A DNA stretch of 64,000 nt from Escherichia coli (GTDB taxonomy: Bacteria; Pseudomonadota; Gammaproteobacteria; Enterobacterales; Enterobacteriaceae): the NCBI RefSeq assembly GCF_003334355.1, contig NZ_QOWP01000006.1; one strand, given 5' to 3'. Below the pieces are notes generated by a model that saw only the letters and a program-made list of their open reading frames with translations, ran no database searches and was not told the origin of the DNA. Made by a program: the position numbers and the translations under genes. Position 1 is the stretch's first letter; each line of letters opens with the position of its first letter. This document shows positions 154 to 29,345 of the stretch, one piece after another.

Positions 154-162
154 GGGAACCCC

Positions 163-1830
163 TTATTGCAAACGTTCTAATAAACGAGCCAGTTTTTTAT
201 TGCCGCCGGCGACTGGCGACCATTGGTAATGCACAACCGGTTTGCTGGCGCTTTGTAGCTCCAGCGCAAAGCTGCGTAATCCGATGTTAATCACGGCGAC
301 GTTTTCCAGTAATGACGGTGTGTGTTGCTGAGTGGCAGGCGAAAGCGGACGAATCAGTGCCGCCGCCAGCAAGGTGGCTTCCGGCAGCGAACTCACTACC
401 GCGATCCCTGCATCTTCCAGCGTGGCGATTTGCTGCGAGCGGCATTGCGGGTCACGTTCAGTGCCTGTCACCGTGGCAATGGCATACAGTGGTTGATTGT
501 CTGAAAGCGCGGCACATGCTTTTTGCCAGGCGCTTACCAGCGAGGCGGCAGGATCGGCGGTCGCACCGAAGCCAATCACGACATCAAGCAGCAATACGCG
601 CACTTGCGGTTTAGCGCCGAGATCGGCAATTAACTGGTTGCGTAAGGCTGGGTCGATCATCGGATGGGGACGCCCGACGGTGTAGAAATCATCGCCGAGG
701 TCAATAATCTGGTGACCATCAGCGTCGAGCATCATGCCGTGATGATGGGTATCGTCGGCTTCCACGCCAAGGTGTCCAGCAAGTAATCCCGCCGCTTCGG
801 CAGCCAGCGTACCGCCGGTATACAAACCGCAAATAAATCCGCTGCTGACAGGCGCTATTGCGTTACGTCGCGCCGTGACACGTGAAAGCAGGCAAGCCAG
901 GCGTGCGGCCTCATCCAGCGAGGAGGCAAACCAGACATTCTCGTCGCGGGCCACCGCCGGGGTATAACCTAAAAACAGCGCCACCGTCGGTTTGCCGGTT
1001 GCTTTCATGGCATTAACAATTTTCAGACGCACAGCTTCGGCAGGCGGTTTTGAAACAAATGCCAGCACTTCGCTTTTCTCGTCTGCACTGAGCATTTCCA
1101 GCGCCGTCAGCGCACTGATGCCGCCTACTTCACGGCTGAGGTCGCGCCCGCCAAGGCCAATCGCGTGAGTAATTCCCTCCCCTGCCAGCGCAATCTGCGA
1201 GCACAGCTCCTGAATCCCGGTACCGGAAGCGCCAATGACGCCAATGTTGCCTTCCGGCATCACGTTAGCAAAAGCCAGCGGCGTGCCGGCAATCATCGAC
1301 GTACCGCAGTCCGGCCCCATCACCAGCAAGCCTTTTTCTCGCGCGCGGGTTTTAAGTTGGATTTCATCTTCCAGCGTGACGTTATCGGAGAACATCATCA
1401 CGTTGAGGTTGCGATCCAGCGCCTGATTCGCCAGCTCCGCCGCATACTCGCCAGCCACTGAAATCAGCGCCAGACTGGCATCGGGTAATTTCTGACAGGC
1501 GCTGTCCCAGCGACGCACCTGCGTCAACGCCTGGCTGCTGCCTGACCCCTGCGCCAGTTGTTTTAGCGCCTCTTCAAGCTGCTGCATAATCGCCTGCGCG
1601 ATCCCCGCATCCGCCGCTTCGCTACGAATTGCCACGCAAATATCGTTCGGCGTGGCGTTATTAAAATCGTCATGCCAGAAACCTGTGGTATCTAATAACG
1701 CTTTATTGGCGGGCGTACCCATCATTACGGAAACATCATCAACATTTTCTGATTCGCTGAGTTTTCGTGAAATAATCATTAAACTGACCGAATCCTGAAA
1801 ACACCCTTTTTTAATAAAGGCGTGGATCAT
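163..1830 (-). CDS. fdrA: FdrA, acyl-CoA synthetase-like protein (555 aa)
   Basis: 555-aa ORF of K-12 FdrA length; position next to allD; CoA-ligase-like glycine-rich motifs. Confidence 0.9.
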   Translation of the reverse strand: MIHAFIKKGCFQDSVSLMIISRKLSESENVDDVSVMMGTPANKALLDTTGFWHDDFNNATPNDICVAIRSEAADAGIAQAIMQQLEEALKQLAQGSGSSQALTQVRRWDSACQKLPDASLALISVAGEYAAELANQALDRNLNVMMFSDNVTLEDEIQLKTRAREKGLLVMGPDCGTSMIAGTPLAFANVMPEGNIGVIGASGTGIQELCSQIALAGEGITHAIGLGGRDLSREVGGISALTALEMLSADEKSEVLAFVSKPPAEAVRLKIVNAMKATGKPTVALFLGYTPAVARDENVWFASSLDEAARLACLLSRVTARRNAIAPVSSGFICGLYTGGTLAAEAAGLLAGHLGVEADDTHHHGMMLDADGHQIIDLGDDFYTVGRPHPMIDPALRNQLIADLGAKPQVRVLLLDVVIGFGATADPAASLVSAWQKACAALSDNQPLYAIATVTGTERDPQCRSQQIATLEDAGIAVVSSLPEATLLAAALIRPLSPATQQHTPSLLENVAVINIGLRSFALELQSASKPVVHYQWSPVAGGNKKLARLLERLQ

Positions 1831-2067
1831 AACAACTCCTTAAAAATTGCACCCATGGCAATTGCACGAGCAGTGTTAATGTGGCGATTACGGTATCGAT
1901 GACAACGGGTAAATAAGGTGATGAATATCACACAGGGATTATTAACAAAAGAATTCAAATAACCGCCATGCTATTACGTGTTATTTTTTAATAAGCGTGG
2001 TTGTTTTAAAAACCAGGTTAAAAGCGAGCGGATTATCAAATAAATTCTAACTATATTTTTTTGCCTG

Positions 2068-2087
2068 TCTGGATCACATAATCCAGA
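2068..2087. promoter_or_regulatory. Perfect inverted repeat TCTGGAT-N6-ATCCAGA about 60 bp upstream of allD; candidate activator (AllS?) site
   Basis: 7-bp arms with 6-bp spacer read directly in the fdrA-allD divergent intergenic region; the assignment to a regulator is inference. Confidence 0.3.
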
Positions 2088-2146
2088 TATTTTCCCTGTA
2101 TGTTAATTGCAGTCATGCTTCACACCGTCGTTAAAAAGGAAGACAG

Positions 2147-3196
2147 ATGAAAATCAGTCGGGAAACACTCCACCAGCTAATTGAGAATAAACTCTGCCAG
2201 GCTGGGTTAAAACGTGAGCACGCTGCAACCGTGGCTGAAGTATTGGTTTACGCCGATGCCAGAGGGATCCACTCTCATGGCGCGGTGCGCGTGGAATACT
2301 ACGCGGAACGCATTTCAAAAGGCGGCACCAACCGCGAACCGGAGTTTCGTCTTGAGGAAACCGGGCCGTGCTCGGCAATTTTACATGCCGACAATGCCGC
2401 CGGACAGGTCGCGGCGAAAATGGGTATGGAACATGCCATCAAAACCGCCCAGCAAAATGGCGTTGCGGTGGTCGGTATCAGCCGGATGGGTCACAGCGGC
2501 GCAATCTCTTATTTTGTGCAGCAGGCAGCCCGCGCCGGATTCATTGGCATTTCGATGTGCCAGTCCGATCCAATGGTGGTGCCGTTTGGCGGCGCGGAAA
2601 TTTACTACGGTACTAACCCCCTGGCCTTTGCCGCGCCGGGAGAAGGCGACGAGATCCTTACCTTTGATATGGCGACTACCGTACAGGCATGGGGAAAAGT
2701 GCTCGACGCCCGCTCGCGTAATATGTCTATCCCGGATACCTGGGCGGTCGATAAAAACGGTGTACCAACAACCGATCCGTTCGCGGTACATGCTCTGCTC
2801 CCCGCCGCCGGGCCAAAAGGGTATGGCCTGATGATGATGATTGACGTCCTCTCAGGCGTCTTACTCGGCTTACCGTTCGGGCGACAGGTTAGTTCGATGT
2901 ATGACGATTTACACGCAGGGCGTAATTTGGGGCAATTACATATAGTTATTAATCCGAACTTTTTCTCCTCCAGCGAATTATTCCGTCAACATCTTAGCCA
3001 GACCATGCGCGAATTAAATGCCATTACCCCCGCGCCCGGTTTTAACCAAGTTTATTATCCCGGACAGGATCAGGATATTAAACAACGCAAAGCCGCCGTC
3101 GAAGGCATCGAAATTGTTGATGATATTTACCAGTATTTAATTTCCGACGCGCTTTATAACACGTCATACGAAACGAAAAATCCCTTTGCGCAATAA
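2147..3196 (+). CDS. allD: Ureidoglycolate dehydrogenase AllD (349 aa)
   Basis: 349-aa ORF, N-terminus MKISRETLHQLIENKLCQAGL...; first gene of allDC-allE operon. Confidence 0.9.
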   Translation: MKISRETLHQLIENKLCQAGLKREHAATVAEVLVYADARGIHSHGAVRVEYYAERISKGGTNREPEFRLEETGPCSAILHADNAAGQVAAKMGMEHAIKTAQQNGVAVVGISRMGHSGAISYFVQQAARAGFIGISMCQSDPMVVPFGGAEIYYGTNPLAFAAPGEGDEILTFDMATTVQAWGKVLDARSRNMSIPDTWAVDKNGVPTTDPFAVHALLPAAGPKGYGLMMMIDVLSGVLLGLPFGRQVSSMYDDLHAGRNLGQLHIVINPNFFSSSELFRQHLSQTMRELNAITPAPGFNQVYYPGQDQDIKQRKAAVEGIEIVDDIYQYLISDALYNTSYETKNPFAQ

Positions 3197-3217
3197 TTAT
3201 TGAGACAGGACTTTCTT

Positions 3218-4453
3218 ATGATTACACATTTTCGTCAAGCCATAGAAGAAGCGCTGCCCTAGCTTTCCTCATTTGGCGCTGACCCAACGGGTGGGATGAC
3301 CCGTTTACTTTATTCGCCGGAATGGCTGGAAACCCAGCAGCAATTTAAAAAAAGAATGGCAGCAAGCGGGCTGGAAACACGTTTCGATGAAGTGGGGAAT
3401 TTATACGGTCGCCTGAGTGGCACCGAATATCCACAGGAAGTGGTTCTGAGCGGTTCGCATATCGATACCGTGGTTAACGGCGGTAACCTCGACGGGCAAT
3501 TCGGCGCGCTGGCGGCGTGGCTGGCAATTGACTGGTTGAAAACGCAATACGGCGCGCCGCTACGTACGGTCGAAGTGGTGGCGATGGCAGAAGAAGAAGG
3601 CAGCCGCTTCCCGTATGTCTTCTGGGGCAGTAAAAATATCTTTGGGCTGGCGAATCCTGACGACGTGCGGAATATCTGTGATGCCAAAGGAAATAGTTTT
3701 GTCGATGCGATGAAGGCTTGCGGATTTACTCTGCCGGACGCCCCGCTAACTCCGCGTCAGGATATTAAAGCCTTTGTCGAACTGCATATCGAACAGGGCT
3801 GTGTGCTGGAAAGTAATGGGCAATCAATTGGCGTGGTGAATGCAATTGTCGGGCAACGTCGCTATACGGTGACGCTGAACGGCGAATCAAACCATGCAGG
3901 CACCACGCCGATGGGTTATCGTCGTGATACGGTTTACGCTTTCAGTCGCATTTGCCATCAGTCGATCGAAAAAGCGAAAAAGATGGGCGACCCGCTGGTT
4001 CTGACCTTTGGGAAAGTAGAGCCGCGCCCGAATACGGTGAATGTGGTGCCGGGTAAAACCACGTTCACCATTGATTGTCGTCATACCGACGCCGCCGTGC
4101 TGCGTGATTTCACCCAACAGTTAGAAAACGACATGCGGGCGATTTGCGATGAAATGGACATTGGTATTGATATCGATTTATGGATGGACGAAGAACCCGT
4201 GCCGATGAATAAGGACCTGGTCGCCACCCTGACAGAATTGTGTGAAAGTGAAAAACTGAATTACCGGGTGATGCACAGTGGTGCCGGGCACGACGCGCAA
4301 ATTTTCGCGCCTCGCGTGCCGACCTGCATGATTTTCATTCCCAGCATCAACGGGATCAGCCATAACCCGGCGGAACGCACCAATATTACCGACCTTGCCG
4401 AAGGGGTCAAAACGTTGGCACTCATGCTTTATCAACTTGCCTGGCAGAAATAA
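3218..4453 (+). pseudogene. allC: Allantoate amidohydrolase AllC interrupted by an in-frame amber codon at codon 15 (TAG 3260-3262); the uninterrupted reading frame resumes at ATG 3296 and gives 385 aa
   Basis: ATG 3218 with AGGA 7 nt upstream encodes MITHFRQAIEEALP then TAG; the same frame continues through ATG 3296 to the stop at 4451-4453; 3218-4453 is 412 codons, matching 411-aa K-12 AllC, which by recollection has Trp at this codon. Confidence 0.55.
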
Positions 4454-4463
4454 GGAGTCATAA

Positions 4464-5249
4464 ATGGGATATTTAAATAACGTCACCGGTTACCGCGATG
4501 ATTTACTGGCTAACCGTGCGATTGTGAAACACGGTAATTTCGCACTGTTAACCCCGGACGGTCTGGTAAAAAATATTATTCCGGGCTTTGAAAATTGTGA
4601 CGCGACAATCCTCTCCACGCCAAAGCTGGGTGCCTCTTTTGTTGATTATCTGGTCACACTGCATCAAAACGGCGGCAACCAACAGGGCTTCGGTGGCGAA
4701 GGCATTGAAACGTTCCTGTATGTGATCACTGGAAATATCACTGCCAAAGCCGAAGGCAAAACATTTGCCTTAAGCGAAGGTGGCTATCTTTATTGCCCGC
4801 CAGGCTCCTTAATGACGTTTGTTAACGCCCAGGCCGAAGACAGCCAAATCTTTTTATATAAGCGCCGCTATGTTCCGGTAGAAGGCCATGCACCGTGGCT
4901 GGTTTCTGGCAATGCCAGCGAACTGGAACGCATTCACTATGAAGGTATGGATGATGTGATCCTGCTGGATTTTCTGCCCAAAGAGTTAGGTTTTGATATG
5001 AACATGCATATCCTCTCTTTTGCACCAGGTGCCAGCCATGGTTATATCGAAACACATGTTCAGGAACACGGTGCCTATATTCTTTCCGGTCAGGGGGTTT
5101 ATAACCTCGACAATAACTGGATCCCGGTGAAAAAAGGCGATTACATCTTTATGGGCGCTTATTCTTTACAGGCTGGTTATGGTGTAGGGCGTGGTGAAGC
5201 GTTCAGCTATATTTACTCGAAAGATTGCAACCGCGACGTAGAGATTTAA
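4464..5249 (+). CDS. allE: (S)-ureidoglycine aminohydrolase AllE/YlbA (261 aa, cupin)
   Basis: 261-aa ORF directly after allC; matches recalled YlbA. Confidence 0.85.
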   Translation: MGYLNNVTGYRDDLLANRAIVKHGNFALLTPDGLVKNIIPGFENCDATILSTPKLGASFVDYLVTLHQNGGNQQGFGGEGIETFLYVITGNITAKAEGKTFALSEGGYLYCPPGSLMTFVNAQAEDSQIFLYKRRYVPVEGHAPWLVSGNASELERIHYEGMDDVILLDFLPKELGFDMNMHILSFAPGASHGYIETHVQEHGAYILSGQGVYNLDNNWIPVKKGDYIFMGAYSLQAGYGVGRGEAFSYIYSKDCNRDVEI

Positions 5250-5291
5250 GTCATACCACTCGCCTGATTATTTTTAGCTATGTTGGATTTT

Positions 5292-5318
5292 GCCACGGTT
5301 TATACCGTGGCTTTTTTT
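5292..5318 (+). terminator. Rho-independent terminator of allDCE operon
   Basis: GCCACGGT-TTAT-ACCGTGGC hairpin followed by TTTTTTT. Confidence 0.7.
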
Positions 5319-5326
5319 GTAACATT

Positions 5327-5431
5327 GCCTGATGCGCTTCGCTTATCAGGCCTACATGATCTCTGCAATATATAGAATTTGCGCGATTTTCAGGAAGGAT
5401 ATAGTACTCATGCCGCATCCGGCATGAGTAC
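5327..5431. repeat. REP element plus a 12-bp-arm perfect palindrome between allE and glxK
   Basis: GCCTGATGCGCTTCGCTTATCAGGCCTAC REP-like unit; AGTACTCATGCC-GCATCC-GGCATGAGTACT palindrome at 5402-5431. Confidence 0.6.
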
Positions 5432-5476
5432 TGCGCTCTTATACGAAATAAATAGCATCCGCTTTAAAGGCAAGAG

Positions 5477-6622
5477 TCAGTTTTTAATTCCCTGACCTAT
5501 TTTAATGGCGCAGGCAATATTTCGCGCGCTGTTGAAGAGATTGATTTCACCGCTGGCGAGTACTTCGGCTAAAGGTGCCAGACGTGGCAAAATGCTGAAT
5601 ACCGCATCAATGCCATACTGGTGCACCACTTCCACGCCATCACCCAATACGCCAGCAATCCCAATCACCGGTACATTAAACTGCTTCGCCACCGACGCCA
5701 CACCCAGCGGCGCTTTACCGCCTGCCGTTTGCGAGTCGATGCGCCCTTCCCCGGTAATCACCAGTGCTGCGCCCTGCACTGCCTGCGCAAGATTGACCGC
5801 ATTCAACACAATCTCAATACCTGGTTTAATATCCGCATTGAGAAATACCGCCGCCGCAATACCCATACCGCCCGCAGCGCCGCCGCCCGCCATCTGGCAG
5901 ACGTTGATTTCAGTTTGCTGTTGTAAAACACGGGCGTAATTTTGCAGCCCCTGTTCCAGCTCTTCGACCATTTCCGGCGTTGCCCCTTTTTGCGGGCCAA
6001 ACACCGCCGCCGCGCCGCGTGCCCCTACCAGCGGGTTATCAACGTCACATGCTACTTCAATATGGCAATTCGCCAGACGCGGATCGCATTCATCCATCTC
6101 AATGCTTGCCACGCGCGCTAAATTACCGCCGTTAGCCACCAGCACCTGACCGTCGGCATCAAGGAAACGCACACCGAGCGCCTGCGCCATGCCCATACCG
6201 CCGTCGACCGTCGCACTGCCGCCAATGCCGAGAATAATATGGCGAATGCCGTTATCCAGCGCATGACGAATTAACTCCCCCGTACCAAAACTGGAGGCCA
6301 GCAACGGATTACGCTTTTCAGGCGCGACCAGCATCAGGCCACTTGCTGCCGCCATCTCAATCACCGCCGTTTTCCCGTCGCCGGTAAGGCCATAAAAAGC
6401 ATTCACTGTTTCGCCCATCGGCCCGCAGACTTCAAGCGTCACGATGTTGCCGCCCGTCGCGGCGACCATCGCATCCACCGTTCCTTCGCCGCCATCCGCT
6501 ATCGGCAAACAGATATAGTGCGCATCGGGAAAGAGGGTCGAAAACCCGGCTTTAATTGCCTGGCAACATTTTTCTGCACTTAAGCTCTCTTTAAAAGAGT
6601 CTGGCGCAATGACAATCTTCAT
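5477..6622 (-). CDS. glxK: Glycerate 2-kinase GlxK (381 aa)
   Basis: [30 protein letters not shown]...; start trimmed to the Met that gives K-12 length. Confidence 0.9.
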
Positions 6623-6643
6623 TATCAATCCTTTTTCAACAAA

Positions 6644-7945
6644 TTATTCGATGCGTTCCCACGGAATAAGATTATCCATAAGAACAGCCAGTAAAATCCC
6701 GACCAATAAGCCGTTACTGAGCAGAGGACGCAGCGTTAATGGAAGGTCTTGCAGATACACAGGCGGTAATGCCATTAAAAATATGCCGACAAATAACGGC
6801 AATGCGAGTCGATAAATATTGCGAGCGGTAAAGGTTATTTGCTGGCTAAACACCAGCGCGGAAAAGAGTAAAGGCAGATAAGAAACCAGCATGACCGCGC
6901 TACTCACGGGTAAAGGGATACTGCAAAACAGTCGTGTGAGTGCCGGAACCAGCGCCACCAGCAGGCAAATAACGCTGCCATAAATAAACGAACGCCGCGT
7001 GTAATCGCCAGTCTGGGTTAATAAACCAATGGATGAAACAAACGGTGAAAATGGAATTACCGCCAGCGGTACGGTTATCAGCGTCATAAATCCGGTCGCC
7101 ACAAAGCTACGACGATAACGCGTATTCCCCGCGCCCTGCTGCGGATAAAAAACATCCGTGCCCCGAATCGCACCGTAGGTATTGCTGATATTCACCAGAC
7201 CTGTAATCACCGCCGTCAGAATAATTCCCGGCGACAAAGCACCGCCACTGCCGAGCGGGAACCACTGCCAGTGCAACTCACCGGAGAGCGAATGCGAAGA
7301 AGGAAAGCAAAAGTACCACAACAACCAGCCGGTTATCGTACCGACCAGCAGGCCATAACGGGCAAAACGTTGCGGCAGAAAGATAATCATCGCCAGTACC
7401 AGGCACATCACCGCCACCGAGAGCGCGAACGGTGGTAACTGAATTTTAAAATTTGGGTCGGCTATGCCAAACGGCAGCCCGAGCATACCTTTGAAAAAGA
7501 TAGTGGTCAGCTGCGCGCCCAGCATCAACATAAACAAGACCATCACCGACGGCGTAAATAACCGTGCCAGGCGATGGCCTAATCCGCTAAAACCAATCAA
7601 CATCGTCAGCACGCCGGAGAGTGCAATCCCCACCGCCAGACTGGTAGCGATATCGTTGATCGGTGTCCCGCGCGATGCTTCGCCAAGGGTGATAGTAAGG
7701 ATGGTTCCCCACCACAGGCCACCCGGCCCTTCCATAATAGCGCGACGATGACCGCAGAACGCCTGAGCGAAGCAGGCCAGTGCGGTAGCAAGAAAAGCAT
7801 ATTGCGTGAGCGTAAGCAGGCTACTTTGCGGCAACTGAAAAGCAGAAAGTAGCGTAGGAGGAACCACAACCGTGTTGCAAAAAATAAAGAAAAACCACTG
7901 AAATCCTGATAACAGGCTTTCGCGGCTGACTGCAAAATTGAACAT
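6644..7945 (-). CDS. ybbY: Putative purine/allantoin-pathway permease YbbY (433 aa)
   Basis: Polytopic membrane ORF; ATG at 7943-7945 with AAGGTG 5 nt upstream (the track ORF starts at a GTG 2 codons earlier). Confidence 0.85.
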   Translation of the reverse strand: MFNFAVSRESLLSGFQWFFFIFCNTVVVPPTLLSAFQLPQSSLLTLTQYAFLATALACFAQAFCGHRRAIMEGPGGLWWGTILTITLGEASRGTPINDIATSLAVGIALSGVLTMLIGFSGLGHRLARLFTPSVMVLFMLMLGAQLTTIFFKGMLGLPFGIADPNFKIQLPPFALSVAVMCLVLAMIIFLPQRFARYGLLVGTITGWLLWYFCFPSSHSLSGELHWQWFPLGSGGALSPGIILTAVITGLVNISNTYGAIRGTDVFYPQQGAGNTRYRRSFVATGFMTLITVPLAVIPFSPFVSSIGLLTQTGDYTRRSFIYGSVICLLVALVPALTRLFCSIPLPVSSAVMLVSYLPLLFSALVFSQQITFTARNIYRLALPLFVGIFLMALPPVYLQDLPLTLRPLLSNGLLVGILLAVLMDNLIPWERIE

Positions 7946-8001
7946 AAACACACCTTAACCGGAGAATGCCCGCCGCAAGGACGGGCATTGCAGGGGCCAG
8001 A

Positions 8002-9363
8002 TTACTGCTGATGTTTAAGGATAAATTGACCTTTCGGCGCAACAGGGAAGCCCTGTTCAATGTCGTAAATCACATCACCACGTAAGATGGTTTTCGTGAT
8101 ACGCGCGCCAATGGTACGGCCAACATACGGGCTGACTTTGTGGCGATATTCCAGATCGTCATTGGTAAGAACATAGCTGCTATTCGGCTGAATGAAGACG
8201 AAGTCGGCATCTTTTCCTGGGGCGATACGGCCTTTTTGCTGCAGACCGAAAATATCTGCTGCGTTAGTCGCCATTAATTTGCCGAACATTGGCAGAGACA
8301 TTCCGCGTTTCTGTACCGCTTCATCGAACATCACGTCCATACAGTTTTGCAGACCGGCAATACCGCCCCATGCTTCCATGATGTTGCCGGCTTTCATTTC
8401 CGGAGGGCATGGTGAGTGGTCGGAAACCAGGCAGTCGATTTCACCGTTAAACAGTTTTTCCCACATGCCTTTCTGGTTTTCCAGATCGCGGATCGGCGGT
8501 GAACACTTCGCCAGAGTACCGATTTCTTCGAACTGATCGGTATCCAGTACAAAGTAATGCGGGCAGAATTCACAAGTAACATCCTGACCTTCCTGACGTG
8601 CACGAATCACTTCTTCAACACCTTCTGGGCTGCTGATATGGCAAATGTGCAGACGGCAACCGGCAACTTTCGCCAGGTACAGTACGCGGCGAATCGCTTC
8701 CATTTCGGTAAATACCGGACGCGAAGCCACATAGTCATGGGCAGTTACACGACCTTCACTTTTCGCTTCTTCGCCCAGTGCATCACAGATCAGCGCGTTT
8801 TCGCAGTGCACCAGCACCGGCTGCCCCAGTTCGCCCAGCTTCTGCGCACCTTTGAAGAACTGCCAGTCGTTTACATCACGGAAGTCGTTGTCGATACCGC
8901 GATCGCCACAGGTCGCAACGAAGCATTTGAAGCCGACAACGCCCACTTCATCCAACTCATGCAGACGATCAATGTTGTAAGACACCAGGCCACCGAGTTG
9001 TGCCGCATCGATAGTCAGCTTGCCTTTAGCGGCATCGAACTTCAGTTCAATTGAAGCACGGTCAACCGTTGCAGGCAGCTGGTTGAGCGGCATTTCGATC
9101 ATGGTGGTGATACCACCTTTTGCCGCTGCGCGAGTACCGGTTTCATAACCTTCCCAGTGGCTACGACCCGGTTCAGAAATATGGGTGTGCGCATCAACCA
9201 TGCCCGGCGAAACCACCAGACCAGACGCATCCATAACTTCTTTTGCATCGCCCAGATCCTGACCGATAGCAGCAATTTTTCCGCCTTTAACGGCGATATC
9301 TACAACGCGAGCTTCGTTTTCTAAAATAACGGTGCCGTTTTTAATGATTAAATCAAAAGACAT
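8002..9363 (-). CDS. allB: Allantoinase AllB (453 aa)
   Basis: 453-aa amidohydrolase-family ORF with DAHTH metal motif; position in all cluster. Confidence 0.92.
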
Positions 9364-9422
9364 AACAAACTCCTTGTAAAATACAGATTGGTTTTTAACT
9401 CAATGTTCAATATCGGGATTAA

Positions 9423-10877
9423 TTAACCTATGGTTTTTTGCTCTCCTGTTTTTTCTGCTGTTGTACGTTTCTTTAATAAGGCGTAGGCCGCAAAGGCGAC
9501 GATGACGCCGACAAACCATGAAACACGCGATAACGGTTCCATAAAGTGAATAAACTTACCGCCAAGAGATAAAATAACGGCCACCAGAGTTACTGAAAAC
9601 GCAGTGAGGTTAAAACCGTTATCGTAATATTTATAATCGCCAGGTGCGGTATACAGTTCATCAAGATTAATTTGTCCGCGCATCACCACAAAATAATGCG
9701 CCATCATGACACCAATTACCGGACCAAGCATTCCGCCGATAATATCGAGGAAAAGATAAATGCTGTCCTGATTTTCCATTAATTTCCACGGGCAGATCAG
9801 CAAGCTGATAATACTGGCAATCAGTACGCCGTTTTTATAGGTCAGTTTTGTCGGTGCAATGGCGGCAATCTGATAACCGGCTGGAATAATATTACCGGTC
9901 GCGTTAGTGGAGATAGTTGTCATCAGAATAACCAGTACCGCAAAGAACGAGGCGAACAGGCTGTCCCAACGCTGAACAATATCCAGCACGTTCCAGGTAT
10001 CAGCGCCGTAGTGAATACTGACTCCGGCAATAATACATACCCCGGCGACCGCAAACAGAATATAGGCCACAACTAAACCCAGCGTTTGCCCCAGCGCCTG
10101 CTCACGAAACGAGTGGGCGTTTTGCGTAAAGTCGGATGCGCTCACCGCCGGTGCCGCCCAGACCGCAACTACCGCGTTAATCACCACCAGGAACAGGAAG
10201 CCACCGTTTTCTGCTTTCTGAATACCGCTCGGAATGTAGTCAAAGATTGGACCGATCCCGACCAGTGAAATCGCCCAAATCGCCATACCGCCGAAAACGA
10301 TATAGATGCACGGGTTAAGAATGGCAGTGAATTTATTTAAAACTTTGCCACCGCCAAAACCTATACCAACGTTGACCAGCCAGAAGATTAAGAAAGTAAT
10401 TAAGCCCGGTAGAGAAAGGCCTAACAGAGTGAAATCACCACCGAGAGTTAAAAATCCCGGCCAGATTTTGCCAATCAGAATCAAGCAGGCCAGTGACCCC
10501 GCGTAACATTGCAAACCAAACCACATGATGGCGGCAATTCCGCCCCTTAATAATCCGGGAAACAGTGCACCACGTACACCGTAAGAAGCACGCAGGATCA
10601 TGGCAAAAGGCACACCGTATTTACTGCCCGCAGCACCGTTTAATACCATTACCGCGGCAATGAAAAAGGCGCTGAGGATAATTGCCAGCATAATACTAAA
10701 GGTAGACAAGCCGAGAATAAAAAAGCCGCCGACCATCACATAATTGGGAACGTTATGAACCGAACCCATCCATAAGGTAAAATAGTTAAATGTTTTCCAG
10801 GTCCGCTGGCTTTGCGTTTTCGGCAATAGATCTTCGCTATAGCCGCGTTGCTGGAATAGTTTTCTCTGATGTTCCAT
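9423..10877 (-). CDS. ybbW: Allantoin permease YbbW/AllW (484 aa, NCS1 family)
   Basis: 484-aa multi-TM ORF between glxR and allB. Confidence 0.9.
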   Translation of the reverse strand: MEHQRKLFQQRGYSEDLLPKTQSQRTWKTFNYFTLWMGSVHNVPNYVMVGGFFILGLSTFSIMLAIILSAFFIAAVMVLNGAAGSKYGVPFAMILRASYGVRGALFPGLLRGGIAAIMWFGLQCYAGSLACLILIGKIWPGFLTLGGDFTLLGLSLPGLITFLIFWLVNVGIGFGGGKVLNKFTAILNPCIYIVFGGMAIWAISLVGIGPIFDYIPSGIQKAENGGFLFLVVINAVVAVWAAPAVSASDFTQNAHSFREQALGQTLGLVVAYILFAVAGVCIIAGVSIHYGADTWNVLDIVQRWDSLFASFFAVLVILMTTISTNATGNIIPAGYQIAAIAPTKLTYKNGVLIASIISLLICPWKLMENQDSIYLFLDIIGGMLGPVIGVMMAHYFVVMRGQINLDELYTAPGDYKYYDNGFNLTAFSVTLVAVILSLGGKFIHFMEPLSRVSWFVGVIVAFAAYALLKKRTTAEKTGEQKTIG

Positions 10878-11014
10878 AAATCCCTCTTAATTTCACGTAT
10901 CGAATAACGTTGTTTTAATCTAGCTATGAGGAACAAATAAAATAAAAATATTATTTTTAATACTGAAGCAACATCTTTGGCTGCTTTCTTTTTTAATATT
11001 GCTGGCCGATTCAT
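10736..11014 (-). CDS. ybbV: YbbV-like hypothetical 92-aa ORF overlapping the ybbW 5' end; probably not a real gene
   Basis: 92-aa ORF of the size and position recalled for K-12 b0510; heavy overlap with ybbW and no convincing SD. Confidence 0.2.
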   Translation of the reverse strand: MNRPAILKKKAAKDVASVLKIIFLFYLFLIARLKQRYSIREIKRDLWNIRENYSSNAAIAKIYCRKRKASGPGKHLTILPYGWVRFITFPIM

Positions 11015-11045
11015 TTTCTGATATCGGCCATTTTTATTGCGGGTA

Positions 11046-11924
11046 TCAGGCCAGTTTATGGTTAGCCATTAATTCCAGCGCCTGCACTAACGCAGAGTGA
11101 TCCAACTGGCTGCCACCGTTTGCCGCACAGGTATTAAATAACTCCTGGCAGGTCGCAGTGTTTGGCAGGTTCAGCGCAAGTGCTTTCGCACTTTGCAGTG
11201 CCAGGTTGAGATCTTTCTGGTGCAGAGCGATTTTGAAGCCCGGATTAAAGGTGCGTTTAATCATACGCTCGCCATGAACTTCCAGAATACGTGAGGAAGC
11301 AAAGCCGCCCATCAGCGCCTGGCGCACACGTACCGGGTCCGCACCGGCTTTTGAAGCAAATAGCAGGGCTTCAGAAACCGCTTCAATATTGAGCGCCACG
11401 ATAATCTGATTTGCCACTTTGCAGGTTTGACCATCGCCGTTACCGCCCACGAGGGTGATATTTTTACCGAGCAGTTCAAACAGCGGTTTAACACGTTCAA
11501 ATACCGCTTCATCACCGCCAACCATAATCGACAACGTCCCTTCACGCGCACCGATTTCACCGCCGGAGACTGGCGCATCGAGATAATCGCCGCCCAGTTC
11601 ATTCACCTGACGAGCGAAACGCTTAGTTTCAATCGGGGAAATGGAGCTCATATCAACAATGGTTTTGCCCTTCAGCGAGGCTTTGGTACAACCATTTTCA
11701 CCGAACAGAACTTCTTCAACCTGAGGTGTGTCCGGCACCATAATAAAAATGATGTCCGATGCTTCCGTTACCTGGCGAGCAGTTTCAACACTGACGGCAC
11801 CCAGTGACAGTAATTCATCAGCAACCGGTCCAATGGTCGTGACATGTAATTGATGACCGGCACGCGCCAGATTAATGGCCATCGGTGTACCCATAATGCC
11901 TAAGCCAATAAATCCCAGTTTCAT
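11046..11924 (-). CDS. glxR: Tartronate semialdehyde reductase GlxR (292 aa)
   Basis: N-terminal Rossmann motif MKLGFIGLGIMGTPMA; 292 aa. Confidence 0.92.
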   Translation of the reverse strand: MKLGFIGLGIMGTPMAINLARAGHQLHVTTIGPVADELLSLGAVSVETARQVTEASDIIFIMVPDTPQVEEVLFGENGCTKASLKGKTIVDMSSISPIETKRFARQVNELGGDYLDAPVSGGEIGAREGTLSIMVGGDEAVFERVKPLFELLGKNITLVGGNGDGQTCKVANQIIVALNIEAVSEALLFASKAGADPVRVRQALMGGFASSRILEVHGERMIKRTFNPGFKIALHQKDLNLALQSAKALALNLPNTATCQELFNTCAANGGSQLDHSALVQALELMANHKLA

Positions 11925-12023
11925 AATTAACCTCTTTTAAATTTCGCTTTTCCTGAATTCAGACAACACGATCCCCTGCCAACTTAGCGGCCTAAAAAAG
12001 CATTGTCTGAATAGCGTTACGTT

Positions 12024-12800
12024 TTAACGGTACGGATCCATCCAGCGTAAACCGGCTTCCGTGGTGGTTTGGGGTTTATATTCACACCCAACCCAACCGT
12101 TGTAGTCAGAATTTTCGATTACCTTAAAGAGATAATCATAATTAATTTCTCCGGTTCCCGGTTCGCCGCGATGCGGATTATCGGCAATTTGCAGGTGACC
12201 AATTTTATCAGCCCACTGAGTCATGGTGTTGGTTAATTCACCTTCCATCCGCTGCATGTGATAAATGTCATACTGAATTTTCAAATTGCAGCAACCAACA
12301 TCATCAATCAATTTCAGCGCCTGCCGAGTTCCGGTGAGATGGAAACCAGGAATATCAAAATGGTTAATAGGTTCAATCAGTAATAAAATATCTTCTTTCA
12401 TCAGCATATTCGCGGCATAACGCAGGTTTTCTACAAGCGTTGCGTGAATCTGTTCACTGCTGAAACCAGCCGGCGTTTTACCGACCAGACAGTTAATTTT
12501 TTTATTACCCAGCGCACGGGCATAACGAATCGCTGCTGCTACGCCATCCCGAAACTCTTCTTCACGGCCAGGAATACAGGCAATACCGCGCTCCCCCGCC
12601 GCCCAGTCACCCGCCGGTAAATTGTGCAGCGTATGTTCGAGTTTATTACTCGCCAGCACATGTTTTAATTCTTCAATGTCGTAGTCATAAGGAAACATAA
12701 ATTCAACGCCGCGAAAACCACACTGCGCAGCTTTCTCAAAACGGGCGAGAAAATCATATTCTCCAAATAACATCGATAAATTAGCAGAGAAACGTAACAT
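12024..12800 (-). CDS. hyi: Hydroxypyruvate isomerase Hyi (258 aa)
   Basis: 258-aa TIM-barrel isomerase-like ORF between gcl and glxR. Confidence 0.9.
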   Translation of the reverse strand: MLRFSANLSMLFGEYDFLARFEKAAQCGFRGVEFMFPYDYDIEELKHVLASNKLEHTLHNLPAGDWAAGERGIACIPGREEEFRDGVAAAIRYARALGNKKINCLVGKTPAGFSSEQIHATLVENLRYAANMLMKEDILLLIEPINHFDIPGFHLTGTRQALKLIDDVGCCNLKIQYDIYHMQRMEGELTNTMTQWADKIGHLQIADNPHRGEPGTGEINYDYLFKVIENSDYNGWVGCEYKPQTTTEAGLRWMDPYR

Positions 12801-12812
12801 TATTTATCTCCC

Positions 12813-14594
12813 TTATTCATAGTGCATGAAGCAGGTTTCAGTCGGTGCGTCCGCTGCGTTATCGGCGATATCTTCAAATTCCATGACGTTATCCAGTTCG
12901 CTGCCCATCGAAATATTGGTCACACGCTCGAGAATAACTTCCACGACTACCGGTACCCGATATTGCGCCATTAAGGCTTTCGCCTGTTCAAAGGCTGGCG
13001 CAATATCTTCCGGTTTGAAGACCCGAATAGCTTTACAACCTAAACCTTCCGCTACTTTTACGTGGTCAACACCGTAGCCATTCACTTCACTGGAGTTGAT
13101 ATTCTCGAAAGCGAGTTGCACGCAGTAGTCCATGTCAAAAGCGCGTTGTGACTGACGAATCAGGCCGAGATAGGCGTTATTCACCAGCACATGGATGTAC
13201 GGAATGTTGAACTGCGCGCCAACGGCTAACTCTTCAATCAGGAACTGGAAGTCAAAGTCGCCAGAAATCGCCACCACATTGCGTTTCGGATCAGCGGCAC
13301 AAACCCCCAGCGCCGCCGGAATCGTCCAGCCTAACGGACCAGCCTGACCACAGTTGATCCAGTGGCGGTCTTTAAAGACATGCAGCATTTGTGCCGCAGC
13401 GATTTGTGACAAACCAATGGTGGTGACATAGCAAACATCGCGACCAAAGGCTTTGTTCATCTCTTCATACACGCGCTGCGGTTTCACCGGCACGTTGTCG
13501 AAATGGGTTTTGCGCAGCAAAGTGCGTTTGCGCTGCTGGCAGTCGGCGACCCATTCTTTACGACACGGCAGACGACCCGCTTTTTGCATCTCCTGCGCCA
13601 CTTCAACCAGCAGTGTCAGCGCCGCTTTAGCATCAGAGACAATGCCGAGATCCGGACACAGCACGCGACCAATTTGCGTCGGCTCAATATCGATATGAAC
13701 GATTTTGCGCCCTTCGGTGTATTTCTCTACCGAACCGGTATGACGGTTAGCAAAACGGTTACCGATACCAAACACCATGTCGGACGCCAGCAACGTTGCG
13801 TTACCGTAACGATGCGCGGTTTGCAGACCCACCATCCCGGCCATCAGTTCATGATCGTCCGGGATACAGCCCCAGCCCATCAGCGTTGGGATCACCGGAA
13901 CGCTGGTCAGTTCAGCAAACTGTTGTAACAGTGCAGCTGCGTCAGCATTAATTACCCCGCCCCCGGCAACAATCACCGGACGTTCGGCCTGGATTAACAT
14001 TTCTACAGCTTTTTCGATCTGCATACGGCTGGCAGCAGGTTTGTAGACCGGCAGCGGTTCGTACATGTCAGGATCAAACTCGATTTCCGCAACCTGAACG
14101 TCGAACGGTAAATCCACCAGTACCGGACCCGGACGACCAGAACGCATCAGGTGAAATGCCTGTTGCAGCACGCGAGGCACCAGCGCCGCTTCACGAACTG
14201 TAACCGCCATTTTGCTGACCGGTTTAGCAATTGCTTCAATATCTACGGCCTGAAAATCTTCTTTATGCAGACGGGCGCGCGGTGCCTGGCCGGTAATGCA
14301 CAGAATAGGAATGGAATCAGCAGAAGCGGAATAGAGCGCGGTGATCATGTCCGTGCCCGCAGGACCGGAAGTCCCCAGACATACGCCGATATTTCCTGCC
14401 GTTGCGCGGGTATAACCTTCCGCCATGTGCGAAGCACCTTCCACATGACGCGCCAGAATGTGACGAATACCGCCGTGCTTACGCATCGCTGAGTAGAACG
14501 GATTGATTGCAGCTCCCGGAACACCGAAGGCGGTGGTGATACCTTCTTTCTCCAGCACATACATTGCCGCGTCAACGACTCTCATTTTTGCCAT
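12813..14594 (-). CDS. gcl: Glyoxylate carboligase Gcl (593 aa, ThDP enzyme)
   Basis: ORF contains [19 protein letters not shown]...; start placed at the Met that gives 593 aa. Confidence 0.92.
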
Positions 14595-14614
14595 TTTATT
14601 CCTACCTCTATTTA

Positions 14615-14631
14615 TTGGAAAATTTTTCCAA
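14615..14631. promoter_or_regulatory. AllR operator in gcl promoter (TTGGAAAATTTTTCCAA palindrome)
   Basis: Perfect TTGGAA-N5-TTCCAA dyad directly upstream of gcl; a near-identical dyad recurs in the allA-allS intergenic region. Confidence 0.7.
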
Positions 14632-14683
14632 CTTTCAAATTTTGTCAAAAAAACCCGCTCCGCAGAGCGGGATGCGACAGACA

Positions 14684-15499
14684 TTATGGATGTGCTTTCA
14701 GTCCCAACGCCGTGCTGATATCGCGGGCGGTGTCTCTGACCAGCTCACCCTGACTGACAAAACGATCTTCTGTCAGTCTTGATGAAGGCCCGGAGATGGA
14801 GATAGCGGCAACAACACTACCGACATCATCGTAAATTGCTGAAGCTATGCAATTCAGACCTACAACATGCTCTTCTTTATCTACGGTATAGCCCAGTTCA
14901 CGCGCTTGTTCCAGGTCCTTCAGCAAGGTGGGCATATCCACAAGCGTAGTTGGCGTAAACTGCTGCAAACCGGTTTGCAGAATGATGCTCATCAACTCCT
15001 CTTCCGCCAGCGGATAAAGCAGCGCTTTGCCCGCACCGGAAGCATGCAGTGGCAGACGACTGCCCAGTGGCGCACACATCCTGACCATCGATTTACACTC
15101 TAACTGACCAATTAATACCGCTTCATTGCCGTTACGGATCGCGACATTGACCGTTTCGCCGGAAAGTAACATCAGGCGGCGCATAAACGGCCCGGCGACG
15201 GAGAGGACATCGCGGTTATGGATGTACGCCGCACCGACGTTAAAGACACCTAATCCTATATGCCACCAGCCTAATTGACTGTCCTGATAGACAAAATCCG
15301 CTGCCTGTAAAACCTTCAGCAAGCGAAAGGTCGTGGAGAGCGGCAAATCCAGATTGAGAGAAATATCGCTAACCGACGAACTTCCCCCACTTTTTTCCAA
15401 ATATTGCAGAATCGCAATTCCCCGCTCTAACGCCTGTGCGCCCTTCTGTGCCACAGGCTCCGCCTGTCCTGGCCTGCCGCGCCGTCTAACTTCCGTCAT
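14684..15499 (-). CDS. allR: IclR-family allantoin repressor AllR (271 aa)
   Basis: 271-aa ORF with N-terminal HTH and IclR effector domain; between allA and gcl. Confidence 0.92.
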
Positions 15500-15576
15500 A
15501 CCTACGTTAACTCCGACCTACAAGTGAGCATAAACAATGAACAATTAGTTTATCTTATGCAAGTCGGTTGCAGGCG

Positions 15577-16059
15577 TCACGCAAAACAGAGTTCCTGTTC
15601 AGGAATACTTTCAACATCACAGTTGTCACTGCCGCCGCGATCGATGGTCAGAAAATCGGTGACGCGCTGCCAGGCGAAAAGTGGGTGATGCCAGACGTTA
15701 CGATGGTAATTCACTCCCTGTTCGCCGTTGGTGATAAACGCCCGCAGCGTTGACAGGTCTGGTTTGTCGTCACCTAACGCCACGACCACCACAAACACCT
15801 CACCTTTCATCGGGATAAAGGCCTGAGTACCCAGCGGATGACGTTCGAGTTCGTGAATGGTCAGCGGCAGATTCGCCGGTTGCGCGCGGTTAATGCTGAT
15901 AAGCGTACGGTCTTGCTCAAGAATCTCAACCAGCGCCAAATCGTGGTAACGCTCCACCAGGCCATTGTTAATATGGAAAAAATCCCGTTGCTGCGTTTCG
16001 ATTACGTCGCCATAAGCACTAAAGGCTTCCTGACTTAACGGTAATACCTGAAGTTTCAT
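15577..16059 (-). CDS. allA: Ureidoglycolate lyase AllA (160 aa)
   Basis: 160-aa [24 protein letters not shown]... Confidence 0.9.
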
Positions 16060-16164
16060 CTTTTTGTCCTTGTAACATAATTCCGTTCAACCACCGCCGA
16101 CCGGTCAGCTTGGTTTCAATAACAGGCAATCTAAAACCTTAAGAGAACAACATCAATACAAAAG

Positions 16165-16181
16165 TTGGAATATTTTTCCAA
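16165..16181. promoter_or_regulatory. AllR operator in the allA-allS divergent region (TTGGAATATTTTTCCAA)
   Basis: Same dyad as in the gcl promoter. Confidence 0.7.
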
Positions 16182-16288
16182 AACTAGATTTAGTCCACAA
16201 ATTGAACAGGGTTATCATGTAAAAATACTGATAAATCAGAGGATAAGAAAATCACGCAACTTGCGGATTTAAAAGGGGATACCTGAAG

Positions 16289-17215
16289 ATGTTCGATCCA
16301 GAAACCTTGCGGACTTTCATTGCGGTTGCTGAAACAGGAAGTTTTTCAAAAGCGGCAGAACGATTATGTAAAACCACGGCGACGATCAGTTATCGCATTA
16401 AACTTCTGGAAGAGAATACCGGAGTAGCGCTGTTTTTCCGTACGACTCGCAGCGTGACGTTGACAGCGGCTGGCGAGCATCTACTTTCCCAGGCCAGAGA
16501 CTGGCTGAGCTGGCTGGAAAGTATGCCAAGCGAGCTGCAACAGGTGAATGATGGCGTGGAACGCCAGGTGAATATTGTCATCAACAACCTGCTCTACAAC
16601 CCCCAGGCCGTCGCCCAGTTGCTGGCGTGGCTGAATGAGCGTTACCCCTTTACCCAGTTTCACATCTCCCGACAAATCTATATGGGCGTCTGGGACTCGA
16701 TATTGTACGAAGGTTTTTCGCTGGCTATCGGCGTCACGGGAACTGAGGCGCTGGCAAATACCTTTAGTCTTGATCCCTTAGGATCGGTGCAATGGCGCTT
16801 TGTCATGGCGGCGGATCATCCGCTGGCGAACGTTGAAGAGCCGCTAACAGAAGCGCAGTTGCGGCGCTTTCCGGCGGTCAATATTGAAGACAGCGCCCGC
16901 ACCTTAACCAAACGCGTCGCCTGGCGATTGCCAGGGCAAAAAGAGATTATTGTTCCCGATATGGAAACGAAAATCGCCGCCCATCTGGCGGGCGTTGGCA
17001 TTGGTTTTTTGCCAAAATCGCTTTGCCAGTCAATGATCGATAATCAACAACTGGTCAGCCGGGTAATCCCAACGATGCGCCCTCCTTCGCCATTGAGTCT
17101 GGCATGGCGCAAATTTGGCAGCGGCAAAGCGGTAGAAGATATTGTGACCTTGTTTACCCAGCGCAGGCCGGAAATCAGCGGATTTTTAGAAATTTTCGGC
17201 AACCCACGCAGTTAA
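16289..17215 (+). CDS. allS: LysR-type activator AllS (308 aa)
   Basis: 308-aa LTTR with N-terminal HTH; divergent from allA. Confidence 0.9.
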
Positions 17216-17268
17216 AAATCAAGTTTCCTTGCGCGTTGGCGCGTAAAATAGCGCGCAAGCTGATTTGA

Positions 17269-18378
<1,110 letters not shown>

Positions 18379-18441
18379 TGGGCGGTATTCTGAAACGGCG
18401 ATTGTCGTGAGAACAGAATGGTTGCACCAGAATACAGATAT

Positions 18442-18478
18442 AAAAAAACCGACATGACAGTCGGTTTTTTTATTTTTT
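18442..18478. terminator. Bidirectional rho-independent terminator (selU on +; candidate sRNA on -)
   Basis: AAAAAAA-ACCGAC-ATGACA-GTCGGT-TTTTTTTATTTTTT; A-tract before and T-tract after the hairpin. Confidence 0.75.
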
Positions 18479-18530
18479 CCGCCCAAGACTTGGTGGTTCC
18501 GGGCAGAAATGAAACAGTCCTCATCTAGCA
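18442..18530 (-). ncRNA. Candidate antitoxin sRNA (~88 nt); its 5' end is antisense to a 16-nt element that recurs in the toxin leader
   Basis: Minus-strand promoter (-35 TTGAAT, 17-bp spacer, -10 TATAAT) puts the start near 18529-18533; transcript begins with the reverse complement of CAGTCCTCATCTAGCA (18515-18530) and ends at the bidirectional terminator. Confidence 0.4.
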
Positions 18531-18535
18531 AGTGA

Positions 18536-18564
18536 ATTATAAGTCAGGATGCCTACATATTCAA
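18536..18564 (-). promoter_or_regulatory. Predicted sigma-70 promoter of the candidate sRNA
   Basis: Minus-strand -35 TTGAAT (18559-18564), 17-bp spacer, perfect -10 TATAAT (18536-18541). Confidence 0.45.
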
Positions 18565-18680
18565 ACAGCTATGTTGGCGATACAATCCCGACGCTAGTAG
18601 TGATACTGCCTCAAGGGATTACCGCAGTGCGGAAAAGTACTTTTAAGTCCTGGTCAGGATACAGGTGGTGCTGATTCTGG

Positions 18681-18689
18681 TGCTCTAAT
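18681..18689 (+). promoter_or_regulatory. Predicted extended -10 promoter (TGcTCTAAT) for the toxin mRNA
   Basis: TGn + TCTAAT on the plus strand; predicted start near 18696, just 5' of the second 16-nt copy (18701-18716). Confidence 0.3.
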
Positions 18690-18789
18690 TTGGAGAGAGG
18701 CAGTCCTCATCTAGCACATGAAGAAAATCATAGTTACAGGCAACGTAAGGGTAAGCTGTGATTGTCTTTCTCCCTTAAGGGAGCAACGG

Positions 18790-18873
18790 ATGAAAACTTT
18801 TCTCGATAAAGTTCTCATCGTTCTTAAGGCGCTAATCGCGCTGCTGGAACTGATCCGTCAGTTTATTGAATAA
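18790..18873 (+). CDS. Candidate type I toxin: 27-aa hydrophobic peptide MKTFLDKVLIVLKALIALLELIRQFIE (DinQ-like)
   Basis: ATG 18790 with AAGGGAG SD 6 nt upstream; SD lies in a CTCCC/GGGAG hairpin; single predicted TM helix; own terminator downstream; core ALIALLELIR recalled as shared with DinQ. Confidence 0.5.
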   Translation: MKTFLDKVLIVLKALIALLELIRQFIE

Positions 18874-18893
18874 CTGAGGAAACGTAGCTAAGG

Positions 18894-18920
18894 CCGAAGG
18901 TTTACCACCTTCGGTCTTTA
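18894..18920 (+). terminator. Terminator of the small toxin ORF
   Basis: CCGAAGGT-TTACC-ACCTTCGG hairpin followed by TCTTTA. Confidence 0.6.
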
Positions 18921-18944
18921 AAAAAACCGACATGACAGTTGGTT
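18920..18944. repeat. Second copy of the 25-nt selU-terminator motif (one mismatch)
   Basis: AAAAAAACCGACATGACAGTTGGTT versus AAAAAAACCGACATGACAGTCGGTT at 18442-18466. Confidence 0.7.
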
Positions 18945-18976
18945 TCATATTTATTGCCAAAATGCACACTGTTCAT

Positions 18977-19074
<98 letters not shown>

Positions 19075-19090
19075 AATCTAACACCTGTCA

Positions 19091-28052: not shown

Positions 28053-29345
28053 TTATACGGTTTTATTGCGCTTCATGACCATTGCCACAATAAGGCTGAG
28101 TAAGAGTGAGCCAATAATCCATATCAACGCACGGCTACCCTGGGACCACAGACTGTAGATAAAGCCAACGATCACCAACAACATCACCAACGTACCAACG
28201 ATAAGAATCGGCAACGAGGCGTGAATATCATGACGCAGGCGGATCGCCACCACAAACACCGCCAGGTAGCAAATCAAAAAGGTGGCGCTGGCAACACTGG
28301 CGAGTGAGCCTAAATTTAGCGCCGCCGTCATCAGCATAATCAACACCACGACAATAATGTTGCCCCAGGTACTCTGCCGCCACAGGGATTTATTCATTAG
28401 CTTCGGCAGTTCGCGTTCGCTGCCCATGTTGTCCATGATGTTAAACACGGCGAACAGGTTCGCGTTAATGGCTGAAGCCGTCGCCAGTAAAGCGCCGATG
28501 ACGACGATCACATAACCCACATGCCCGAGCAGCGGAGAAGCAGCCTGCGCTACGGCGGTATCGGCATATTTTTCTAACTCTAATGCCGATACATCGCTAA
28601 GCAAAACCAGTGCCAGCGAGATATAAAGCAACGTGGTAACGCCAATCGCCACCAGAAACGCCCGCGGCATAATGACCTGCGGATCTTTCACTTTATCCGC
28701 CGCGTTCGCCATCATGCCAAAGCCCGCATAGGCAAGGAAGGTTATCCCGATACAGGAGAAGAACGCACCGGAGCTGGGGGGCGCAGAGACGGAAATATGC
28801 GCCGGTTGCAGCGACCAGACACCTGCAATGATCAGCAATAACAGGATCATCATTTTAATGCCGACGAGGATCACTTCCAGCCGCCCTACCGCATGGTTGC
28901 TTAAGGAGTTGAAAAGCGTCATCACCGCAATGATCCCCAACGCGTAGAGCAAAATAAGATGCTCCTCCTGGCTGCCTTCATGCAAAAACTGCACGGCATA
29001 AGCGCCAAAAGCACGGGCGACCATGGCGATGCTCACCGCCAGCGTCAACAGGTACAGTAACGAGAGCGCCAGCGAAAAGACGCCGTTACCTAATCCGCGA
29101 CGAAAGAAGTCGATAATGCCGCCATTGCTGGGATAGCTCGCCCCCAGGCGCGCATAGGCATAACCGGAAAACATCGCCACAATACCGCCAAAAGCAAAGG
29201 CGACCCAGGTCGAGGCTTCCATTAGCAATGCAGCCTGCCCCAGCAGCGCGAAGATCCCCGCCCCCACCATTGCCCCAATGCCGATGGAAACGACGTTCCA
29301 TAGACCGAGAGGTTTGTTACCGTTATTACCTTCCGTGTTCATCAT
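28053..29345 (-). CDS. ybaT: Putative amino-acid/polyamine transporter YbaT (430 aa)
   Basis: 430-aa APC-family multi-TM ORF, co-directional with glsA. Confidence 0.88.
   Translation of the reverse strand: MMNTEGNNGNKPLGLWNVVSIGIGAMVGAGIFALLGQAALLMEASTWVAFAFGGIVAMFSGYAYARLGASYPSNGGIIDFFRRGLGNGVFSLALSLLYLLTLAVSIAMVARAFGAYAVQFLHEGSQEEHLILLYALGIIAVMTLFNSLSNHAVGRLEVILVGIKMMILLLLIIAGVWSLQPAHISVSAPPSSGAFFSCIGITFLAYAGFGMMANAADKVKDPQVIMPRAFLVAIGVTTLLYISLALVLLSDVSALELEKYADTAVAQAASPLLGHVGYVIVVIGALLATASAINANLFAVFNIMDNMGSERELPKLMNKSLWRQSTWGNIIVVVLIMLMTAALNLGSLASVASATFLICYLAVFVVAIRLRHDIHASLPILIVGTLVMLLVIVGFIYSLWSQGSRALIWIIGSLLLSLIVAMVMKRNKTV

Follow-up and report, generated by a model that had tools for sequence, protein, structure and literature searches.

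Two TTGGAA-N5-TTCCAA dyads in the allantoin cluster of an Escherichia coli strain as very probable operators of AllR

The two dyads and the published AllR sites

Two near-identical 17-bp dyads in the allantoin cluster of this E. coli strain almost certainly serve as operators of AllR, an IclR-family repressor whose gene lies between them. In the window, the whole 64-kb stretch of DNA analysed here, TTGGAA-N5-TTCCAA has two exact matches, site 1 in the gcl promoter (TTGGAAAATTTTTCCAA) and site 2 in the divergent region between allA and allS (TTGGAATATTTTTCCAA); their coordinates are given in Table 1. On the plus strand the sites differ at 1 of 17 positions, and a tolerance of two mismatches in the dyad brought no extra site across the 64-kb window. 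At gcl the dyad forms a perfect 8-1-8 palindrome, TTGGAAAA-T-TTTTCCAA, and the arms of the allA/allS site agree at 7 of 8 positions. Site 1 follows the allR terminator and precedes gcl, whose start codon (ATG at 14594, minus strand) is 20 bp downstream. Site 2 sits midway in the 229 bp that separate allA from allS, with the start codons of the two genes 114 bp (allA) and 116 bp (allS) away. A sequence-only reading of this DNA had described two near-identical dyads at these places and assigned them to AllR. The description was accurate in sequence and coordinates; gene positions, colinearity with K-12 and RefSeq names confirmed the locations, and the assignment is supported by identity with K-12, the published motif, a 37-bp site from the literature and conservation.

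The first 18,380 bp of the window (1-18380) are the E. coli allantoin cluster, colinear in reverse orientation with NC_000913.3 530130-548509 and aligned to K-12 MG1655 by megablast with no gaps at 98.8% identity. Gene identities were taken from open reading frames and their translations, from megablast against annotated K-12 MG1655 and from the RefSeq names under the match, and the structure of the gcl-hyi-glxR-allW-allB-ybbY-glxK operon follows PMC12535856. The region was found in 5405 of 5426 complete E. coli genomes. AllR scored 619 bits against the NCBIfam equivalog NF007548 (cut-off 406), and its effector domain corresponds to PDB 1TF1; AllS scored 643 bits against NF007501 (cut-off 372). 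With these scores and the few or absent differences from K-12 listed in Table 1, allR and allS are intact, as the earlier reading had stated.

The control DNA is equally close to that of K-12. All three spacers, allS-allA (229 bp), allA-allR (77 bp) and allR-gcl (89 bp), match K-12 MG1655 at 100% identity; in that genome the two operators lie at 532329-532345 and 533879-533895 of NC_000913.3. The 19-nt E. coli AllR motif KTTGGAAWAWTWTTCCAAC, which PMC8222616 ascribes to Rintoul 2002 and to its own comparative analysis, matched site 2 on the minus strand with 0 mismatches and site 1 with one mismatch, at the outermost base; no further match with up to three mismatches occurs in the 64-kb window. 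A 37-bp "AllR recognition site", quoted from Rintoul 2002 in PMC13300388, matched the window exactly and only once, over site 2. PMC12535856 and PMC11323563 report binding of AllR to the control region between allS and allA and to the gcl promoter, with weaker binding in the presence of glyoxylate; allantoin is a reported co-repressor. A ChIP-seq and modelling study regards AllR as highly specific, with one or few strong sites.

Since operator DNA and repressor are identical to those of K-12, the K-12 results on binding and effectors transfer directly. Binding and effector response at the dyads are accordingly taken from the literature, for the gcl site from secondary statements together with the motif. 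Set beside their K-12 counterparts (Rintoul et al. 2002, J Mol Biol 324:599), the operators here show no difference in sequence, in position or in the genes around them; the strain differs elsewhere, by an amber codon in allC, by lacking the RhsD element beside selU and by about 1.2% nucleotide divergence across the cluster. The dyads are already known, at textbook level for E. coli, and nothing about them is new. What was found is that this strain carries the standard AllR control hardware, which has little significance beyond correct annotation.

Table 1. Coordinates of genes and control elements in the window, with the basis of each assignment.
Feature	Position	Strand	Basis or remark
fdrA	163-1830	-	
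allD	2147-3196	+	
allC with amber codon	3218-4453	+	W15*, TGG>TAG at 3260-3262, G>A at 3261 (window against K-12 translations)
allE	4464-5249	+	
gcl-hyi-glxR-allW-allB-ybbY-glxK operon	5477-14594	-	seven genes intact, colinear with K-12
AllR operator (very probable), gcl promoter (site 1)	14615-14631	.	exact dyad, motif, K-12 identity, conservation, matrix 36.3 bits
Putative gcl -35 hexamer TTGACA	14643-14648	-	read from sequence, TTGAC conserved
allR intrinsic terminator	14647-14671	-	7-bp GC-rich stem followed by T-run
allR, IclR-family repressor	14684-15499	-	0 nucleotide differences from K-12 b0506
allA, ureidoglycolate lyase	15577-16059	-	160 aa, one substitution against K-12; RefSeq annotation
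Putative allA promoter TTGATG-17-TAGATT	16128-16156	-	both hexamers conserved in Escherichia, Citrobacter and Superficieibacter
37-bp "AllR recognition site"	16155-16191	-	sequence quoted in PMC13300388, exact match, sole match in window
AllR operator (very probable), allA-allS divergent region (site 2)	16165-16181	.	exact dyad, motif, conservation, matrix 33.3 bits
Putative allS extended -10 element TGTAAAAAT	16218-16226	+	TGnAAAAAT conserved in seven Enterobacteriaceae, n position variable
allS, LysR-type activator of allD/allF	16289-17215	+	308 aa, one substitution against K-12 (L138I)
selU	17284-18378	+	

Conservation of the dyads and competing readings

Short palindromes of this kind might be chance products of A/T-rich DNA, or mere promoter elements (UP-like or -10-like) that serve no dedicated regulator. 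E. coli intergenic DNA is indeed A/T-rich, and a cross-genus scan with the DNA pattern TTGGAAWAWTWTTCCAAC, in which each species was represented by one genome, returned at least 120 loci, of which 112 of the 120 listed were chance matches in unrelated, mostly A/T-rich taxa with no allantoin-cluster synteny. However, the chance expectation for TTGGAA-N5-TTCCAA in the window was 0.01 in dinucleotide-preserving shuffles, two or more matches appeared in 0 of 100 such shuffles, and the two copies fall in the two promoter regions known to be under AllR control. Synteny of the scanned loci was assessed by tblastn with the proteins of the window. Among the matches listed, eight loci carry allS-allA-allR-gcl, and these are every Enterobacterales match listed: three Citrobacter, two Superficieibacter, Enterobacteriaceae RIT691, Serratia marcescens and a Providencia metagenome-assembled genome. 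In 8 of these 8 loci a dyad occupies each of the two equivalent places, the allS-allA spacer and the stretch from the allR terminator to gcl; the loci were recruited by exact motif match, so that species with diverged operators lie outside the sample.

In the eight loci the gcl dyad stands 13-20 bp upstream of the start codon of gcl (20 bp in E. coli), and both dyads persist in species whose AllR shares as little as 65-68% identity; in Serratia, the site between allS and allA carries one mismatch. In the aligned spacers the dyads are islands of identity: four genera and an unclassified isolate of the Enterobacteriaceae retain them at both positions, amid diverged flanks. Because of this cross-genus conservation and the low shuffle expectation, the chance reading can be regarded as excluded.

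Within E. coli, six divergent genomes were compared, and the hexamers of the two sites were invariant throughout. Changes within the gcl dyad were confined to the central 5 bp, with one or two positions altered per genome: the middle base of the palindrome showed a T/A flip in all six, and one further spacer position was changed in 2 of 6. The other substitutions lay in the flanks. In the beach-water isolate E. coli WEM25 (NZ_CP061530.1, 1-2058), gcl is annotated as frameshifted and hyi as interrupted by an internal stop; its gcl operator spacer (AAACT) is the most altered among the sampled genomes, with both hexamers intact. In another genome, PSS-04, an IS1 transposase is among the annotated features under the match, alongside allA.

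A symmetrised weight matrix was built from the 16 foreign sites only, with a maximum of 38.1 bits. Applied to the window, it gave 36.3 bits for the gcl site and 33.3 bits for the allA/allS site, against 10.0 bits for the next best site and 5.6 bits for the best of 20 shuffles. A scan with an AllR matrix had been proposed by the sequence-only reading as a check, and its outcome supports the operator assignment. The 10.0-bit site, at 28561-28577 inside ybaT, is the sole other site of the window above shuffle level; given its place within a gene and a score far below those of the operators, it is probably non-functional.

Each palindrome, once transcribed, can form a short stem, and the dyads might then act at the RNA level, for example by attenuation or through an effect on RNA stability, whether in the leader of gcl or in transcripts that read through. 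Such hairpins would be weak, with folding energies of -4.4 to -6.5 kcal/mol and z-scores of -0.95 to -1.75, and 13-35 of 200 shuffles folded equally well, in contrast to the neighbouring allR terminator. No U-run follows the dyads; the terminators reported by a scan were that of allR and a single one within allS, and no Rfam match was found at the dyads. Across genera the arms are invariant and show no co-variation, and the allA/allS dyad lies upstream of both putative promoters. We therefore regard an RNA function as extremely improbable.

A more substantial competitor is IclR, the paralogous glyoxylate-sensing repressor of aceBAK, which could bind the dyads exclusively or alongside AllR. The IclR box of the aceBAK and iclR promoters, with the published consensus TGGAAATNATTTCCA, shares with the dyads the TGGAA-N5-TTCCA core and its spacing (PMC8222616), and its regulator is likewise glyoxylate-responsive. 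The two dyads are the best matches of the window to this consensus (2 and 3 mismatches of 14 specified positions), and at window 14616 and 16166 they come nearer the IclR SELEX consensus than anything in the K-12 aceB upstream region. AllR itself scored 248 bits on the IclR equivalog model, indicating that AllR and IclR are close paralogues.

Against this, AllR binding and AllR-dependent repression at gcl and allA/allS are established in the literature, and a literature search found no IclR data for the gcl and allA/allS promoters. The AllR sites differ from the IclR box in their additional outer T/A, in their centre and in lying beside allR instead of aceB; the conserved outer T/A (TTGGAA/TTCCAA) and the position beside allR in every species favour AllR over IclR. 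The natural IclR operator region scored below 0 on the AllR matrix, so the two sets of sites are distinguishable. We rejected the dyads as IclR boxes, the mismatches to the IclR consensus being central and neither aceB nor iclR being adjacent. Some IclR occupancy may occur, and nothing supports it as the main function of the dyads; we consider a role of IclR, whether sole or shared, quite unlikely. If IclR did bind here, the glyoxylate shunt would be cross-wired to allantoin and glyoxylate catabolism.

Predicted promoter geometry and proposed repression by AllR

With the dyads read as AllR operators, the surrounding control DNA suggests how repression might work. The 89-bp allR-gcl spacer (window 14595-14683) reads on the minus strand, in order, as allR terminator, TTGACA, an 11-bp gap, operator, Shine-Dalgarno sequence and the ATG of gcl. 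The terminator has its stem at 14671-14654 and a U-run that ends at 14647 and adjoins the putative gcl -35 hexamer, and the terminator fold is stable (-18.4 kcal/mol, z -3.3). In most aligned species TTGAC stands at a fixed distance from the dyad. Given a spacer of 16-17 bp, the gcl -10 element (AAAATT/AAATTT, 14626-14620) would lie inside the operator, with a predicted start site near 14613. A promoter-scan match, TTTCCA-17-TAAAAT with its end at 14593, was rejected because it runs into the gcl start codon.

Two further elements have been described near this spacer. The small RNA AllZ (b4831), from the 3' end of allR and verified by northern blot (PMC8175672), maps from K-12 533629-533863 to window 14881-14647 on the minus strand and is identical to K-12; the allR terminator forms its 3' end, and the gcl operator follows 16 bp downstream. 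A RutR site has been placed upstream of the gcl operon (PMC10163214), and no RutR box TTGACCANNTGGTCAA with up to three mismatches was found within 14594-16300, from gcl to allS.

In the allA-allS region, the best-conserved candidate for the allA promoter is TTGATG-17-TAGATT, with hexamers at 16156-16151 and 16133-16128, which begins 8 bp downstream of the operator. An alternative, TTGTGG (16200-16195)-17-AAAAAT (16177-16172), would place the allA -10 element inside the operator. The TGTG block at 16195-16200 on the minus strand, about 24 bp from the operator centre, is invariant in 9 of 9 aligned species including Serratia and Providencia, and it could be a -35-like element (TTGTGG) of allA or the site of another factor. 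On the best-conserved candidate promoters, the operator centre would fall near -52 for allA and near -60 for allS, which is not the classic position for occlusion.

We propose that the helix-turn-helix domains of AllR read the TTGGAA and TTCCAA half-sites, which with 11 bp from centre to centre lie on the same face of the helix. At gcl, the operator would cover the putative -10 element and start site, so that bound AllR would exclude RNA polymerase from the gcl-hyi-glxR-allW-allB-ybbY-glxK operon. Between allA and allS, a single central operator would serve both divergent promoters; the quoted 37-bp site extends to the candidate allA -35 hexamer and would also cover DNA upstream of the candidate allS extended -10 element. 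According to the literature, glyoxylate releases AllR from DNA, leading to derepression of the genes of the glycerate branch and of allS, and AllS in turn activates allD and allF. The promoter hexamers and the repression geometry in this scheme are read from sequence and are to be taken as predictions.

The sequence-only reading had also held that the two operators define the allantoin regulon. This stands for the direct AllR targets, namely allS, allA and the gcl-glxK operon, and it is overstated for the rest, as the allD and allF operons are controlled via AllS and ArcA, with ArcA acting together with AllS at allF (PMC12535856).

The oligomeric state of the repressor invites a further, more speculative arrangement. 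Walker's work of 2006 is said to have found that active AllR is a tetramer, a dimer of dimers being the reported form, and that tetramerisation mutants are inactive in vivo. Only one strong dyad is present per AllR operator here, so a single tetramer could bridge both operators, looping out about 1.55 kb of DNA with allA and allR, so that gcl, allA and allS would be repressed cooperatively. In 9 of 9 species the two operators are separated by 1548-1647 bp. At the gcl dyad, the best candidates for a second dyad scored -1.5 bits at +18 bp (14633-14649) and -1.9 bits at -27 bp, both below the shuffle maximum of 5.6, and beside the allA/allS operator the foreign-site matrix gave no candidate.

The single strong dyad would set these operators apart from the TtgV-type operators of the IclR family, which are tandem palindromes with sites 18-22 bp apart and are bound by a tetrameric regulator; the two types are alike in that palindromic half-sites are read by a dimer, and members of the family bind as dimers or tetramers (PMC8222616). 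A literature search found no report of operator looping or of IclR occupancy at AllR dyads. Judged jointly with the weaker variant in which IclR also sits on the dyads, we think the looped arrangement unlikely.

The interrupted allC gene and the DNA beyond selU

The regulation of the cluster had been described as normal by the sequence-only reading, which set it against an interrupted allC. In this sequence allC is indeed interrupted, by a single amber codon, W15*, and not by an insertion. The 121-bp allC haplotype around it was matched by 0 of 5319 matching complete E. coli genomes, with a best identity of 99.2%; against the nearest genome, the 121-bp query differs at position 3261 alone. As no complete E. 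coli genome has this haplotype, the G>A change would seem to be one of two things, either private to this strain or a sequencing error. The next in-frame ATG of allC, at 3296, would give a protein without the 26 N-terminal residues.

Judged from the pathway, a cell that has lost the allantoate amidohydrolase encoded by allC should be unable to make the inducer glyoxylate from allantoin. The description of regulation as normal therefore holds for the cis and trans hardware, which is intact, and falls short for the signal, since with the amber codon in allC allantoin should no longer yield glyoxylate. External glyoxylate should still induce the cluster, a minor physiological prediction for this strain.

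The segment that follows selU also departs from K-12. At 18381-19084 the window lacks the RhsD element of about 7.3 kb (ylbG-ybbD-rhsD) that K-12 and NCTC122 have between selU and ybbP. About 700 bp stand in its place, annotated by RefSeq in strains that include ATCC 8739 and HS as a dinQ-like type I toxin. An Rfam match to the AgrB antisense RNA was found at 18440-18528 on the minus strand (53.6 bits), and the segment 18381-19084 includes a repeat with a median of about 38 copies per genome.
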